In this document: positions 56,601-58,531 of the stretch, piece after piece | Numbering within the stretch: the first letter of the stretch is position 1 | How the letters are laid out: every line of letters begins with the position of its first letter | Source of the DNA: Candidatus Omnitrophota bacterium | GTDB lineage: Bacteria > Omnitrophota > Gorgyraeia > Gorgyraeales > Gorgyraeaceae | Assembly: GCA_043814965.1 (NCBI GenBank) | Contig: JBDRJN010000002.1 | Location: 105,984 to 164,514, forward strand | DNA length: 58,531 nucleotides | Reading direction: 5' to 3' | The notes under the pieces: model-generated | What the model saw: the letters and a program-made list of their open reading frames with translations, nothing else | Told to the model about the DNA's origin: nothing | Databases searched by the model: none | Translations under genes and position numbers: made by a program

Positions 56601-58531
56601 ACCCGAATTGATTAATAATAATGCCATCGGCAAAGGCCTGACAGGTGAGGTTACTGTAAGCCAGAATGAAGAAGATGAGACTGTAACTTTCAGCGATAAA
56701 TTTGGAACAACTATAACCTTAAACACTTACGAAACGCTAGCCCAAGACGTTATTCAGAATAATCTTGATATTGACTTAACTAATGTAAAACTTACAGAAT
56801 CTGAAAGAGGGCATGTTGATCAGATCCTTGCTTCATCAAAGAACGTCAAAAACATCGTAAAGATGCAGGATGATAAAGGTATAAGAGGATATTTAGATAC
56901 AAAAACTGGTACATTGTATCTCTCGGAGATATTCTTCAACCAGGATGGGGCAATAGACCAAATAGCTATTTTCCACGAACTCGGGGAGGGCGCTTTAGTA
57001 TCTACTCCGGATAATATCAATACCCATACATATTTAAGAGGGGCAGGTAAAAATTTAAGAAAAGCTTTGGCCTTTCAGGTAAGATGGGGACATATTAAAA
57101 ATGAAGCATCTATAGAAGAAGCTATAGGTACATTAAAAACCTACATGGAAAAACAATTTAGCCTATTTCCTGTTAGCCTATCTCCTATGGAGCCGGAAGA
57201 GGAAAAATTAATCAGATATAATTATGCTAATGGATCGAGGGGTAATGAGCTGGCTTATGGCCTGCAGGATAAAGTATTTGGCGAACGCGCCAATTTTGAA
57301 TTTACAGAGGAAATAAGAAGATATTATGATCCTGATTTTCTGAAAGGGTTAGACATAGAAGGCGTCAAAGAATATATAAAAAATAAGGGTGTTGATTTAA
57401 TAGATAACAGCAATGGCATTACGTTACCTGTCCTTAAAAATATAGCTTTTGTATTAGGTCTTGTGCCGAAAGAACATCTGCCGAACAAGATTACTTTAAA
57501 GGAACAATATGACCCTGCCGGAGGCAAAGGATATATAACTTATCTATCCATGCTCGGCATAACAAAGAATATCGTATGTGAAGGCAACGCATATGGGGAT
57601 ACTGCATTTACTACTGTGCATGAAATAGGCCATATTGCAGCATCCACCAGGAAGTACATGGATTTTTATGAGATCTCCTGGGGTAATGCTGTATCTTTGC
57701 CTTTAGATAATAGCCAGTTTTTAAATTCTTATGCTGCTCAGAATAAGAATGAAGATTTTGCCGAGGCCTATGTTTACTATGTCATGAAAGGAAACGAATT
57801 CAGGGCAATGGCCAGTAGCTCAGATATCGTGCAGCAAAAATATGCCTATATGAAAGAATATGTATTCAATGGAGTTGAATATGGCGGTGAGGTTACAACT
57901 GTAGAAATTCAGGATCAAACACAACTTGCCACAGATGAAGAAGTAGAAGCTTTTTGTAAACAATATCCTGGTATGAAGCAAAATTTTGGTACAACATTTA
58001 TTAAATCTAATTATTATAACTTAGTAGAATTAGGCGAATCCTCAGGAGAAAACGCAAGCTTCTTGTTCGAAGATGGCTTACCTGCTCTAAAAAATTCTTT
58101 TGGCATAGGCTGGATAGATAAAAATTGGGCTACTTTAGTCGAATTAGGCGAATCCTCAGGAGAAAACTCATGGCACTTATTCCAATATGGCTTACTTACT
58201 TTAAAAGACATTATTACAGAGACTAATCTAAGATCGATCGGCAATGACTTAGCAGAATTAGGCGAATCCTCAGGAAAAAACGTAAGCTTCTTCTTCCAAT
58301 ATAGCTTACCTGCTCTAAAAAATTCTTTTGGCATAGGCTGGATAGATAAAAATTGGGCTACTTTAGTCGAATTAGGCAAATCCTCAGGAAAAAACGCAAG
58401 GTACTTGTTCGAAGATGGCTTACCTGTTCTAAAAGACATTATTACAGAGACTAATCTAAGATCGATCGGCAATGACTTAGCAGAATTAGGCAAATCCTCA
58501 GGAGAAAACGCAAGGCTCTTATTCCAATATG
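47539..58531 (+). CDS. giant multidomain protein, 3' end beyond the window (more than 3,664 aa); absent from the supplied ORF track
   Basis: I read the frame codon by codon from ATG 47539 to the window end and met no stop (10,993 nt). The upstream in-frame stop is at 47476..47478. Motif codons at 48505, 49120, 50605, 51064, 53152, 54826, 56047, 57619 and 58027 all fall in the same frame. Every other track ORF after 47216 is a short minus-strand shadow. Confidence 0.9.
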   Translation, partial: MESCKRGPNRIFIKIIALILVHSFFLTSTCYPLPSVSELFKYKRPVYSFNNRNHRVNISSFNDMPYIYNPDIKDNINDLRAIVSFCKSKFKEDFNELVRKGEKEGWLNKDLLSEMDVYGFTDNFVAIEVALGLLVGLEKGITPDEENIRKMFKKKFRKAIRDGESINIKNIGEGWYVSYGSTTLFVKAGAISRVDSIPSKDIISSFSIASNETRTRPDQLVVSARPSQAGQEIDLSGIIQRTGQNAFKDILIKALSPYLNYSEDYDERFFTEAIKKLTSYRSFSKLYSGIGDQGGQLIDIALPGLMREKIKNDNIVLTVKSIGVGGEGHALYETANKIIDYLKKNDLYSSAEQGKIKIRLIGYDINLANLSEVSGKIDRQFEGLDPVWRNCIEKEFIYADLTDENAYKVLFEEKADLLFCRSTWVASTSRWTKDRAENIRDLLESNVNDLGVSYISGLGGAGYAYLDRGRIIAPKYTKIDKLEDSTFINEFEFKGEAIVEKEVEIKSPQKQAGVSFVDYIKTNNYTSIIDIGTGKNAGFLYKLRTSGLSGVELYGIAPGMDTETIETAKNINIVLNDLSYEKLGKLNKKFDVITINAPDYQYDIDNFLNILKSCLSPNGIIILRADDFKRDISEKKNVTENLFKNTIKLHHSDLKIVDVNLDMKELTTDFPLRDPIVIKLALSLIDQAYDTAMEKGNLEEALNLAVKALSSEEDINIKTASELLGGLMDGLQGEKRDISESLLEIVKTYGGDNVRRKKEVERYLQKQEDIKKTLKPIRDMLGDVKFLKIYIALRSMEHAGTVYDIKGLLGTGIRNSVETSRVGKKLNAEIMKGLMAIMAEADRIVKANSDLNNEEAIPIDLNKELEEGIEEKWLNSLESILKRVKDLYAQCEELEKKCSPNSIELESIQDVGKPINEIIEILEERLAWIQGEGDLKKELLDLNAVISNIVAKIKQGFKNPELEVSLDLSTIPVTEANKRMIECLISNILTNNDQLSKTMDITHIGIRTRLSDDGKNIILQVSDNGLGFPEEGLEQSSKKAFFTQRKGGTGLGLTENELYAREHNGTIQIGRGILDFMTKDPANNGTTFTITLPIEGKQQPAQTPQPVPEEINQQNVDNDKSTQAQKTILLVDDKESHLISYKYELEQSGYKVVTAISAKNALDISKTQNFDMVVTDLNLGGPDGLSLASDLKSEGFNGPILVQTPADVGHLNKNLAKRKDQAIENGNIVDFIEKPASIFTGIQEASSLSAIIERYTKADAEREIMQPDITLAAADEANKRITQSDVHNAIEENLPEDLKDFQNMTSEEQKKIKEKYRDSDGQIVIPIEELLLNTGLLGHIGLGQFYGEPVIYIDAQFKGRDRRDIKKHEKFEIFKWENGRKQLGLDHDQMRKWIVQNSNTDGNGKAQLLASQWHNQAPSVNHIYNRLAKQPQYQKSISSVPKSESGYIEDTYTTGSVYQDNHESQGKNVSAKEEDIKRYCKKYPAMEKMFKQAFIEKNIDILAKAESREFSVGDASDLFGDRYDNSLPDLISQGYTIDFIDKHLSDIIDIVINSETNGIEEMKNFSYLIDHFAESWISSHWDGIVKLIRNGNNYVGNRLARLIGEYGLTTFTRSWLDDNWDAIVAIGTDIEDELVFLKGACGIPWLNANLPILASGNASEIKAIKDKIINGKAGVTLSDTKQSGVLSIIDDIVNKRKIAPIEAGQTREQKTINDVVNIVRSLRPAIPKNGSISAMQYEGYIKALTKDLGIGYALKREGAIGVIKNLYREIKTGERARPDLLLWEEYLFRPFFSQQPRVKYKDFNRNLEVIMPGKTVFITPFLSAIAIMIGSGSVFGPLIGPLVALPITFMYMLTAIKGLATSFTNENSSMRHELNHAYVSCIMKKLSQEGLLADLKDGDKKLGPDDGFSNLPVNYPITNENLEQIENHVVRQLYDLPTPITTPDVVLAAGIQKRPDSQGFTGEVYKKLIDHIPSGYFDYNEKGLGVLLKSLGRTAEPTESAAANRVYKSMLNNIEKGISKAEELDDKTVLNQLNKKYKKFLNSEGLEKIEDITRNARSREGFYELLNTSLTSMSTSLELDPEELTQSGKAEEYYRNIQENAYRFRVLSRAYDILSLKGPFELTTDSGKIYYTLDETTDKEEMLGIVENLSDPEGELDDHGFRSGWRGDIKYTKNAAMVIAKSSDGKSIGVALYHKDDFMFMQDRAKKGDYTSSVYMVDFGYVLKDFRKNGLVSNDLKTKIYERALLDSGIGARSDSRIMLIKPANKDMYDGWKKNNYTVETFYSRDLSPEDQWQQSYRVIYRGVGESNLTQAKNRVVISGTKRERPSVATFANLSMGELTILSSEKNEDRANFTKSIVNWLNNGKPKHFSSRVWYASVAGAIGENYIVRLGSVDNPLALAHVTKRTGILSGFGKKDFYEISLVEVSEEFRGQGILGRIVDKVVNEIAKGELVVAYPDNDDARHAFEKIPGGFPVTWQESPYRDEEGNLWADVECFAFQNQGLAGDITVTQIPANFSMQPKNTDHSFSKDGSVDNTKFTVNGKTYTIDSTLDPKDIGVQIGEDIPIITQKGVNITFTIRGPTNKQAVVEVLTPQLLANAIARSKKMYPEGNPANQIITIVLADQYDYIAGDDVQNGIIIFNASVIEDMINNGENNAFIDEFLTAVLEEEDSHECGAPRDMETEMFLDGRGADLTMQNLNDKKLSLKGYINFVSRYASDAKNNNYLAQLKNDSDITLDLTLEEITRMRQIHSDHQIRVYDKLMDGLEINLGGLEADLYMSGSRNIRQYNLSLLRPTQGYLYQTKLDIQSIKTKIRNKYGLFMTPVVILDFGKDGKFIADGHHRYQEALATGETSIEAYTISFDWNDYDIWPQKMKDFYDDCKLRAESVENNGFNVMPNSTTWDFLFYNMMYHIPVIIDTLISDVHLLDEYSAEKFLDAAYHALSGKDSLWIEYDLARAIAELKLTDRKEEIVISKESFDRAVTELNLEESNGTITLKSGVIFKRGEIETPSVNANSTIQGAEEPELINNNAIGKGLTGEVTVSQNEEDETVTFSDKFGTTITLNTYETLAQDVIQNNLDIDLTNVKLTESERGHVDQILASSKNVKNIVKMQDDKGIRGYLDTKTGTLYLSEIFFNQDGAIDQIAIFHELGEGALVSTPDNINTHTYLRGAGKNLRKALAFQVRWGHIKNEASIEEAIGTLKTYMEKQFSLFPVSLSPMEPEEEKLIRYNYANGSRGNELAYGLQDKVFGERANFEFTEEIRRYYDPDFLKGLDIEGVKEYIKNKGVDLIDNSNGITLPVLKNIAFVLGLVPKEHLPNKITLKEQYDPAGGKGYITYLSMLGITKNIVCEGNAYGDTAFTTVHEIGHIAASTRKYMDFYEISWGNAVSLPLDNSQFLNSYAAQNKNEDFAEAYVYYVMKGNEFRAMASSSDIVQQKYAYMKEYVFNGVEYGGEVTTVEIQDQTQLATDEEVEAFCKQYPGMKQNFGTTFIKSNYYNLVELGESSGENASFLFEDGLPALKNSFGIGWIDKNWATLVELGESSGENSWHLFQYGLLTLKDIITETNLRSIGNDLAELGESSGKNVSFFFQYSLPALKNSFGIGWIDKNWATLVELGKSSGKNARYLFEDGLPVLKDIITETNLRSIGNDLAELGKSSGENARLLFQY
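48340..48860 (+). other. giant ORF: degenerate CheR-like methyltransferase module (approximate bounds)
   Basis: LTVKSIGVGGEGHALYETA, IRLIGYDINLANL and ADLLFCRSTW parallel the CheR motifs IWSAGCSTGEEPYS, I.ATDI and FDLIFCRNVLIYF. Confidence 0.45.
49080..49420 (+). other. giant ORF: class I SAM-dependent methyltransferase module (approximate bounds)
   Basis: Motif I IIDIGTGKNAG (49120..), then ELYGIAPG, FDVITINAPDY and LSPNGIIIL. Confidence 0.6.
50359..50826 (+). other. giant ORF: histidine-kinase-type ATPase (HATPase_c) module
   Basis: N box ECLISNILTNN, G1 box SDNGLGF (50605..), F/G2 boxes FFTQRKGGTGLGL (50677..), and GTTFTITLP. Confidence 0.8.
50914..51300 (+). other. giant ORF: response-regulator receiver (REC) module
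   Basis: KTILLVDDKES, MVVTDLNL (Asp codon at 51064), PILVQT and FIEKP. Confidence 0.8.
52981..53125 (+). other. giant ORF: internal two-helix TM hairpin
   Basis: TVFITPFLSAIAIMIGSGSVFGPLIGPLVALPITFMYMLTAIKGL. Confidence 0.6.
53152..53166 (+). other. giant ORF: HExxH motif (HELNH) 9 codons after the TM hairpin
   Basis: Codons cat gaa ctt aac cat read in frame. Confidence 0.4.
53990..54420 (+). other. giant ORF: weak GNAT-like module 1 (approximate bounds)
   Basis: VYMVDFGYVLKDFRKNGLVSNDLKTKIYERAL resembles beta4-alpha3 of GNATs, but the R/QxxGxG/A motif is imperfect. Confidence 0.3.
54646..54960 (+). other. giant ORF: GNAT acetyltransferase-like module 2
   Basis: ISLVEVSEEFRGQGILGRIVDKVVNEIAKG carries the canonical RxxGxG motif A (54826..54840), followed by ARHAFEKIPGGF. 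Confidence 0.6.
55897..56130 (+). other. giant ORF: ParB/sulfiredoxin-fold module
   Basis: LLRPTQ..VVILDFGKDGKFIADGHHRYQEAL, with the DGHHR codons at 56047..56061. Confidence 0.65.
57619..57771 (+). other. giant ORF: zincin motif pair HEIGH ... EDFAEAY (anthrax-LF/M34-like arrangement)
   Basis: HEIGH at 57619..57633. The Glu of FAEAY is at 57763, 44 codons after the second His. Confidence 0.55.
58027..58531 (+). repeat. in-frame tandem repeats of 114 nt (38 aa), at least 4.4 units, two alternating subtypes (228-nt super-repeat), cut by the window end
   Basis: Unit starts gaattaggc at 58027, 58141, 58255, 58369 and 58483. The 3' 66 nt of units 1 and 3 are identical, as are the 3' 57 nt of units 2 and 4. 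Confidence 0.9.

Follow-up and report, generated by a model that had tools for sequence, protein, structure and literature searches.

Annotation is sparse for the giant proteins of the Omnitrophota and of other uncultivated bacteria of this kind. In the Omnitrophota, the domain most often annotated in such proteins is the HEAT repeat, and HEAT scaffolding has been reported in them ('Archaeovorins', bioRxiv 10.1101/2023.11.21.568195). Strict nucleotide tandems are uncommon amongst long genes, of which 17% carry any (bioRxiv 10.64898/2026.06.07.730766); the tandem considered here, by contrast, is near-identical.

The array that we describe resembles HEAT/ARM arrays: both consist of helical units of ~38–42 residues in tandem, in which a hydrophobic core is conserved and a face that is exposed (in the present array, by prediction) varies, and both are found in the giant, multi-domain proteins of such organisms. 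It differs from them in that its tails are of two subtypes that alternate and its cap has a motif of its own, features that are not described for HEAT/ARM. TAL-effector repeats are the other obvious comparison. They are 34 residues long (33–35), have near-identical units with two hypervariable residues in a loop, and form a basic DNA-binding superhelix. As in the present array, their DNA is kept near-identical by concerted evolution, the differences fall at a few fixed positions per unit, and the copy number is difficult to assemble; unlike TAL-effector repeats, the present units have a 38-residue period and approximately eight variable positions along one face of a helix, not a two-residue loop.

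Layout of the array

The window (the whole stretch of 58,531 nucleotides that was analysed) ends where a 164.5-kb NCBI contig ends, and this point lies inside a coding, in-frame array that is the C-terminal part, as cut by the window end, of a giant open reading frame (47539..58531, + strand). The ORF has its ATG at 47539, in a frame open from 47479, encodes >3664 residues and runs off the end of the window and of the contig; the database record of the same 3664-residue product (P0001) begins with methionine. All features of the array are on the + strand. An N-terminal cap (57913..58026; ..EEVEAFCKQYPGMKQNFGTTFIKSNYYNLV), helical in the predicted structure and containing a K-x-Y-P-x-M motif, precedes units that, as had been read from the letters beforehand, are spaced by 114 nt in frame, with starts at 58027, 58141, 58255, 58369 and 58483. 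Unit 1 (58027..58140) is of subtype A (ELGESSGENASFLFEDGLPALK + NSFGIGWIDKNWATLV) and unit 2 (58141..58254) of subtype B (ELGESSGENSWHLFQYGLLTLK + DIITETNLRSIGNDLA); unit 3 (58255..58368) is again A, with the tail DNA of unit 1, and unit 4 (58369..58482) is B, with the tail DNA of unit 2. Unit 5 (58483..58531) comprises the first 16 head codons only, being cut by the contig end at 58531.

The sequence-only reading had given the two tail sequences correctly and had proposed that the subtypes alternate to form a 228-nt super-repeat. The tandem-repeat finder TRF recovers both periods, 228 (2.2 copies, 91% matches, score 863) and 114 (4.5 copies), and the pairwise identities agree, being 108/114 between the two A units, 102/114 between the two complete B units and ~60% between A and B units. 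The array was also said to be still running at the window end, and indeed the contig stops within it, so that the units seen here would be only part of the full copy number. As such arrays end contigs, gene lengths and copy numbers in MAGs are underestimates.

An older, diverged copy of the domain, consisting of a cap and ~4 units, is found by blastp and phmmer in the same ORF (51949..52518, + strand; residues 1471–1661). It shares 28% of its residues with the C-terminal array (blastp E 2e-11 to 4e-11; phmmer 9.8e-10), and the K-x-Y-P-x-M motif precedes both this copy and the array of another protein, P0006.

The repeat family and its variable positions

When 1.84 billion representatives were searched exhaustively with hmmsearch, 81 protein clusters matched at E<=1e-3, of which 13 had E<=1e-30, and E-values went down to 4e-52. 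The members are mostly giant or unannotated; many have 3–7 kaa and several repeat blocks, and many carry a 'partial' annotation. The same head and A/B tails are found in Omnitrophota, Margulisiibacteriota, Elusimicrobiota and other MAG proteins. The window repeats are members of this rare, uncurated 38-residue A/B family, a recurrent module of giant proteins that lies outside all curated models, and the family unit HMM gives all four complete units, each of them A or B, scores of 43–52 bits.

From the family, 512 repeat units were gathered, of which 215 near-complete ones were used for position statistics. The 22-residue common head reads E-L-G-x-S/A-S/A-G-x-N-A-x-x-L-F-x-x-G-L-P-x-L-K (family consensus ELGxAAGxNAxxLFxxGLPxLK); it is followed by a 16-residue tail, which in subtype A has the form ..F....W..LV, with a conserved Trp at position 34, and in subtype B the form I-I-T-x-x-x-L-x-x-I-G (..IT...L..IG..L). 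The conserved frame comprises L2, G7, L13, F14, G17, L18, P19, L30, W/G34 and L37, and entropy is high at positions 4, 8, 11, 12, 15, 16 and 20. The subtypes are no recent local product: both tails recur throughout the family, whatever the phylum, and position 34 is occupied by W in 53% of near-complete units and by G in 46%. Sharing of both tails amongst relatives means that the subtypes are ancient.

Within the window, units of one subtype have identical DNA in their tails; the 18 substitutions that separate them all fall within nucleotides 10–61 of the 114 (P=1.3e-5). The head of unit 3 differs from that of unit 1 in six codons, all non-synonymously, and the head of unit 4 from that of unit 2 by ten non-synonymous and two synonymous changes; a hand tally of codon differences gives a minimum of 17 non-synonymous versus two synonymous events. 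Long stretches of complete identity between units, noted at the outset, are confirmed by exact shared runs of 74 nt (58076 versus 58304) and 62 nt (58202 versus 58430). The shuffling of the middle of the head between subtypes is likewise borne out, since FEDG is carried by units 1 (A) and 4 (B), and FQY by units 2 (B), 3 (A) and 5. Amongst the 55 pairs of biallelic sites in the first 49 nt, which all units share, 14 show four gametes; with this many failures of the four-gamete test, the mosaic is real. Together with tails that are identical in DNA within a subtype, this upholds the signature of recent conversion or recombination that the sequence-only reading had described. Two independent lineages have the same DNA-level repeat behaviour, namely L003 (A+B period 237 nt at 94%, 114-nt period at 96%) and L004 (periods 231/117/114 nt).

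AlphaFold2 with the family alignment predicts an all-helical structure with high confidence (pLDDT 96.8, pTM 0.90). A HEAT unit has ~37–47 residues and is built of two antiparallel helices; according to DSSP, the model has two to three helices per unit, some of them fused across unit borders, with a period of 38 residues, and the cap corresponds to model helices 8–17, 19–32 and 34–43. On a helical wheel, the variable and conserved positions are ~160 degrees apart, and the variable head positions are expected to lie on one exposed face of the first helix, exposure being judged from helical periodicity alone. With the variable positions on one helix face, stacked units would show a stripe of variable residues. 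The positions that vary in the window are also the most variable ones within the arrays of other proteins (Mann–Whitney P=0.0014).

We think it probable that the window contains part of a concertedly evolving, new family of helical repeats with a diversifying exposed surface. The array would have expanded or been homogenised lately in A+B (228-nt) steps, via unequal recombination or gene conversion. Homogenisation would preserve DNA identity in the framework and in the tails, while differences may persist or be reshuffled at ~8–11 head positions (4, 8, 10–12, 15–17 and 19–20), which would face away from the conserved hydrophobic face of the first helix. The variable stripe would most likely be a protein- or ligand-binding surface of quickly diversifying specificity. 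A fast-evolving binding surface had been suggested from the sequence; the concentration of variation at expected surface positions fits this putative role. A homogenised framework with residue-specific variation is a hallmark of recognition surfaces, such as those of TAL-effector and ankyrin arrays.

Selection as the cause is likewise conditional, in that relaxed constraint on exposed residues of a very young array would be expected to give a similar picture. It may be that the array is a neutral scaffold or spacer, the product of very recent duplication, in which the head differences reflect tolerance and reshuffling by conversion and no selection is involved. We consider this unlikely, if far from negligible. 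The pN/pS of ~2.7, summed over pairs, is not by itself significantly above 1 (binomial P ~0.2), older arrays have a non-synonymous to synonymous ratio of ~3:1, near the ratio of sites, and divergence is all that the older copy inside the ORF shows. Against neutrality stand the 53 nt per unit that are free of differences, synonymous sites included, beside so dense a cluster in the head. The positions that vary most are, moreover, shared with unrelated lineages, and neighbouring positions that also look exposed vary less.

Comparison with curated repeats, and the integrity of the array

The sequence-only reading had placed the repeats amongst helix-rich, HEAT/ARM-like alpha-solenoids. The predicted structure supports the helix-rich part of this claim; the HEAT/ARM label finds no support in Pfam, NCBIfam, the PDB or Foldseek. 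It is improbable, in our view, that we are dealing with a common HEAT/ARM or TPR-like solenoid whose divergence has taken it beyond the reach of the models. The 38-residue period and the helical, hairpin-like units are compatible with such an origin, a model predicted from one sequence alone, with low confidence, weakly matched the HEAT repeats of PP2A-A (prob 0.97, E 0.55), importin-beta3 appeared at E 0.3 in a profile search, and the prevalence of HEAT in Omnitrophota giant proteins has been mentioned above. Against this, no match to Pfam or NCBIfam was found on 25 repeat blocks of the family (the window repeat and 24 homologous blocks), on which HEAT, HEAT_2 and HEAT_EZ gave nothing at E<=0.1, nor did HEAT, ARM or TPR models of Pfam match the repeats of 18 full-length members. 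The relative P0002 owes its HEAT name to a HEAT_2 match at residues 1530–1626, a region outside its repeat blocks.

The confident model has no structural relative at E<=1e-3 in PDB or BFVD by Foldseek, a method that is weak for elongated repeats, and natural solenoids are absent from the Foldseek matches. The best of these are designed repeats (TM ~0.15–0.33, a score that is weak for elongated repeats; E>=0.29), and the family profile likewise picks only designed repeats from the PDB (5cwo, E 2.5e-4; 8fbi, E 5.6e-4). The DHR designs (5cwo, 5cwf, 5cwg and 8ugc) and the present units are alike as highly regular, idealised helix-turn-helix repeats; the likeness is one of regularity only and, since the designs are synthetic, no homology is possible.

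Other repeat families were set aside as well. Armadillo repeats (Pfam Arm) have a three-helix unit of ~42 residues, and the present repeat has a 38-residue period and no Arm match. The 34–36-residue helix pairs of TPR, Sel1 and PPR have no match on the repeat blocks; the window also encodes genuine TPR proteins, and these are easily recognised. An assignment to the TAL-effector repeats is opposed by the 38-residue period, by variable positions that extend over 4–20, by the acidic character of the repeat domain (pI 4.6), which argues against DNA binding, and by the lack of TAL_effector amongst the matches listed.

Could the array have been collapsed, over-extended or made chimeric by assembly at the contig end? 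The contig terminates within it, exact repeats of 74 and 62 nt would suffice to entangle the graphs of a short-read assembly, many members of the family are annotated as partial, and giant genes of the Omnitrophota are reported to be fragmented at repeats (10.1101/2023.11.21.568195). Such an artefact would change how many units there are and how they are ordered, but the array would exist all the same, and we hold an artefact to be improbable: the array extends an unbroken frame of 3.6 kaa, it follows a conserved cap, and its units differ at family-typical variable positions and not at random. Comparable arrays also occur inside complete genes on long contigs; the equivalent A+B array of L003 is in a complete gene on a 260-kb contig, which makes an artefact unlikely for the array as such. 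Programmed hypermutation of the heads, for example by a diversity-generating retroelement, would account for variation sharply localised amid otherwise identical DNA, but is scarcely credible given substitutions of all types that are not adenine-specific, the same variable positions in many lineages, and a scan of 37 ORFs of the window (nearly all of those of >=200 residues) in which neither a reverse transcriptase nor a template repeat came to light.

Setting in the giant protein

The giant ORF is like the 'multi-enzyme' long proteins of the Omnitrophota (10.64898/2026.06.07.730766) in combining methyltransferase, kinase, receiver, GNAT and zincin-like modules with repeat scaffolds. Pfam, NCBIfam and PDB matches place a SAM methyltransferase at residues 526–637, the HATPase_c domain of a histidine kinase at 982–1095, a receiver at 1128–1235 and a GNAT domain at 2396–2467. 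These modules suggest a cytoplasmic setting. A hydropathy scan finds an N-terminal hydrophobic anchor (residues 11–33), which suggests export, at odds with the setting suggested by the enzyme modules.

If the stripe binds, the family would offer a handle on the recognition targets of giant proteins, and possibly a natural scaffold for the engineering of binders. A more far-reaching proposal, which we advance only tentatively and regard as less likely than not, is that the repeats constitute a structurally new natural class, without a relative detected amongst solved or predicted viral structures, in which a fixed framework bears a variable binding stripe, the array growing and being homogenised by A+B steps while ~6–8 residues per unit diversify under positive selection. 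It would provide quickly retargetable recognition of prey, host or partner for the giant multi-enzyme proteins of Omnitrophota-like and possibly host-dependent bacteria. The hydropathy scan also finds a transmembrane hairpin at residues ~1813–1860, and the ORF contains two HExxH motifs, HELNH (residues 1872–1876) and HEIGH (residues 3361–3365).

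Array structure and variation between units

The best-supported reading of the 3' end of the window is that a genuine array lies there, whose repeats belong to a new helical family and evolve in concert. The 114-nt in-frame units, all on the + strand, start at 58027, 58141, 58255, 58369 and 58483 and continue to the window end, where the fifth is broken off after 49 nt. Each complete unit encodes a 22-residue head and a 16-residue tail, and the tail sets the subtype: A ends in NSFGIGWIDKNWATLV and B in DIITETNLRSIGNDLA, the order being A-B-A-B and then the head of the fifth unit. 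Tandem Repeats Finder called a period of 228 nt (2.2 copies, 91% matches, score 863) and also one of 114 nt; all that the sequence-only reading had described of the array, namely the unit starts, the 114-nt frame, the two subtypes and the 228-nt alternation, is present. The two A units are identical at 108/114 nt and the two B units at 102/114, against approximately 60% between A and B. Opposite the repeats lies an antisense ORF (58014-58493, - strand, 159 aa, TTG start) that has no support as a gene and is most likely a by-product of periodic sequence free of stops in that frame.

The 48-nt tails are identical at the DNA level between units of the same subtype, and all 18 same-subtype differences lie between nt 10 and nt 61 of the unit, a clustering with P=1.3e-5 if differences were spread uniformly. 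Four gametes are seen in 14 of the 55 biallelic site pairs, and the mid-head blocks FEDG and FQY each occur on both tail types. These observations support reticulate exchange between units, by gene conversion or unequal crossing-over, or by reuse from unseen units, and the recombination signature proposed earlier is upheld. The five window heads vary at codons 4, 8, 10, 11, 12, 13, 15, 16, 17, 19 and 20, for which a hand tally from the listed codon differences gives a minimum of 17 non-synonymous and two synonymous events. The ratio pN/pS, summed over pairs, is approximately 2.7, which is suggestive but alone not significant (binomial P ~0.2). It could thus be argued that the array is a young and neutral scaffold, real in itself, in which the head differences arose without selection; this we consider the less likely reading. 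The window variable positions coincide with the most variable positions in the arrays of other proteins (Mann-Whitney P=0.0014), where 77-90% of unit pairs disagree at positions 8, 11, 12, 15, 16 and 20, and they are also the head positions of highest entropy across the family. Two independent arrays likewise have their non-synonymous differences concentrated at these positions. One is that of P0010 (locus L003), a complete gene of 1586 aa on a 260-kb contig of an Omnitrophota MAG, repeating every 237 nt as A+B (94%) and also every 114 nt (96%); the other, at locus L004, has periods of 231, 117 and 114 nt. Projected on a helical wheel, the variable positions point approximately 160 degrees away from a conserved hydrophobic set (10, 13, 14, 17, 18 and 21), both being inside a helix modelled at unit positions 7-25. 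A variable surface, as had been suggested, is therefore likely, the differences being concentrated at head positions on one predicted helix face.

The longest exact runs common to units are 74 nt and 62 nt, and it is because of these exact repeats that the contig breaks in the array. The database record of the giant ORF that carries the repeats, P0001, is the exact 3664-aa product, on one NCBI contig of 164,514 nt; as the recorded product is cut at the same point as the window, window and contig have a common end. The earlier caution that the assembly does not give the copy number is borne out, as the contig stops within the array. It is to copy number that an assembly artefact is relevant; that such an artefact created the array itself is unlikely.

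Fold and extent of the repeat family

AlphaFold2, supplied with the family alignment, returned an all-helical model of the cap (57913-58026) and 4.4 units with a pLDDT of 96.8 and a pTM of 0.90, so that the helical nature of the repeat, claimed from the sequence, is supported by a confident model. Prediction from the single sequence was poor (pLDDT 61.7), and the weak HEAT-like Foldseek rows obtained from that model are not used as evidence. Foldseek with the confident model found nothing at E<=1e-3 in PDB or BFVD, a type of search that is weak for elongated repeats; its top rows were helical repeats designed de novo and tape-measure proteins of phages, mostly with TM below 0.45. The family profile against PDB sequences gave designed repeat proteins only (5cwo, E 2.5e-4), plus importin-beta3, whose E of 0.3 is not significant. 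Pfam and NCBIfam searches of 25 repeat blocks and 18 full-length members yielded only noise, and the 38-aa repeat family is covered by no curated model of either collection. On the strength of the predicted structure, the assignment of the window array as an alpha-helical tandem repeat is well supported. The HEAT/ARM label given to it earlier does not stand, having neither a curated-model match nor a significant Foldseek match, and a divergent HEAT/ARM identity is unlikely, curated-model and fold searches having given no positive evidence for it. The NCBI name of the family protein P0002, 'HEAT repeat domain-containing protein', is due to a separate HEAT_2 match at aa 1530-1626.

When 1.84 billion representatives were searched exhaustively with HMMER, using a profile made from the two window copies of the domain, 81 proteins matched at E<=1e-3, of which 41 reached E<=1e-10 and 13 reached E<=1e-30. 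Many run to 3,000-7,000 aa and contain several repeat blocks, typically of 4-12 units; those with a named source come from MAGs of Candidatus Omnitrophota, Margulisiibacteriota and Elusimicrobiota, one 'Woesearchaeota' bin and unclassified bacteria. The relatives share the head of the window units, in them ELGKAAGxNAxxLFxxGLPAxK, and have A tails of the form ..F....EYWP.LV or F..NWD.IV and B tails of the form LITD..SL...G.QLV. Of the 512 units gathered with a unit HMM, 215 were near-complete, and 53% of these have W and 46% have G at position 34. The same two tails in relatives, together with this split, indicate that the A/B subtypes are ancient features of the family and not a local novelty; the 'recent' origin once proposed for them has to be abandoned, as both tails recur across members in several phyla. 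Their order varies by protein (adjacent pairs: AA 105, AB 47, BB 40, BA 30). In the sister cluster P0007, P0082, P0084 and P0085, every full-length member has 13 units, with no copy-number difference seen. BLAST of the whole giant protein against other members found nothing shared outside the repeats, and what unites the family is thus a shuffled module rather than orthology of the giant proteins as wholes.

Scanning for the repeat head as an exact DNA pattern gave no match in GTDB genomes, JGI metagenomes or IMG/VR, and protein-pattern scans matched only an unrelated small zincin-like protein of a Patescibacteria MAG (locus L001) and nothing in metagenomes or viral contigs; these scans therefore found no close relative or second assembly of the window locus. 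Word-seeded protein searches with the repeat, the upstream 859 aa and the family alignment also matched nothing, but they missed real database members and carry no weight, because an alignment of such members likewise returned nothing.

In concerted evolution of this kind the framework and tails would be homogenised in A+B steps, and a predicted exposed stripe of head residues would be kept different or reshuffled, as expected for a putative recognition surface. Recognition as the function of the repeat domain, its partner and its compartment are points on which we infer; the acidic character of the domain (pI 4.6) speaks against the binding of nucleic acids. As to general class, we rate the array with known alpha-helical repeat scaffolds that have hypervariable surfaces. 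A diversity-generating retroelement was ruled out because no reverse transcriptase was found among the 37 window ORFs scanned, which include nearly all of those of at least 200 aa, and the substitutions have no adenine bias.

The giant ORF and its genomic surroundings

The giant ORF is in frame 1 of the + strand, open from 47479 with an ATG at 47539, and has 3664 codons up to the window end (58531), the array being its last visible portion. Its domain matches are Methyltransf_31 (aa 526-637), HATPase_c (aa 982-1095), a receiver domain (aa 1128-1235) and GNAT (aa 2396-2467). A hydropathy scan indicates an N-terminal hydrophobic segment (aa 11-33), so that cytoplasm-type enzyme modules and an N-terminal anchor co-occur, and a transmembrane hairpin (approximately aa 1813-1860), directly followed by the HExxH pattern HELNH (53152-53166, +). 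A second such motif, HEIGH (aa 3361-3365; 57619-57633, +), lies in a weak zincin-like match, and a DGHHRY motif has a weak DUF1015 match (aa 2832-2852) and no other. For the stretch immediately preceding the array, GTDB genomes gave a single relative, a free-standing ORF of 268 aa (L001 9566-10372; CBFIAK010000001.1), with 36% identity to the HEIGH zincin-like part (aa 3346-3458) and no repeats nearby.

A diverged second copy of the repeat domain (aa 1471-1661; approximately 51949-52518, +) has 28% identity to the C-terminal array (E 2e-11) and consists of a cap with a K-x-Y-P-x-M motif and then approximately four units. The gene thus carries this module twice, as an old internal array and as a young C-terminal one.

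With its methyltransferase, hybrid histidine kinase and receiver, GNAT and two HExxH motifs, the ORF resembles the multi-enzyme giant or 'polyvalent' proteins of Omnitrophota. Giant proteins that join kinase, receiver and methyltransferase modules to HEAT-type scaffolding are already described for Omnitrophota in passages of two sources (10.1101/2023.11.21.568195; 10.64898/2026.06.07.730766). The matched passages of the latter report strict tandems at the nucleotide level as uncommon among long genes and name repeat scaffolds by Pfam families only (10.64898/2026.06.07.730766); the 38-aa A/B repeat has no Pfam model.

Upstream of the giant ORF are ordinary chromosomal genes of an anaerobe, among them dCTP deaminase, ribonucleotide reductase with intein(s), a Bat/MoxR-VWA-TPR operon, hybrid-cluster protein, Era and TatC. 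P0001 and nine further window proteins, all from the one contig, are singleton clusters at 90% identity, the nine, of housekeeping type, among approximately 15 billion sequences; it seems that the lineage has been sampled a single time. The ribonucleotide reductase large subunit (41849-46660, +, 1603 aa) is split by intein sequence; its Pfam matches to Intein_splicing and LAGLIDADG_3, two stretches of each beside a weak Hom_end, indicate one or two inteins with homing endonucleases. The Bat/MoxR-type operon (33454-41702, +) is complete, with a MoxR AAA_3 ATPase, DUF58, two VWA/BatA-like proteins, TPR proteins, BatD and a TPR+SH3 protein. A 1091-aa ORF (11127-14402, +) with no Pfam match at E<=1e-5 adjoins a GH5 cellulase gene. 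At L003, P0010 is preceded by a cellulose-/chitin-synthase-like GT2/PilZ gene and a TPR/polysaccharide deacetylase gene, and followed by an AbiEii-family toxin gene (10771-11556, -).
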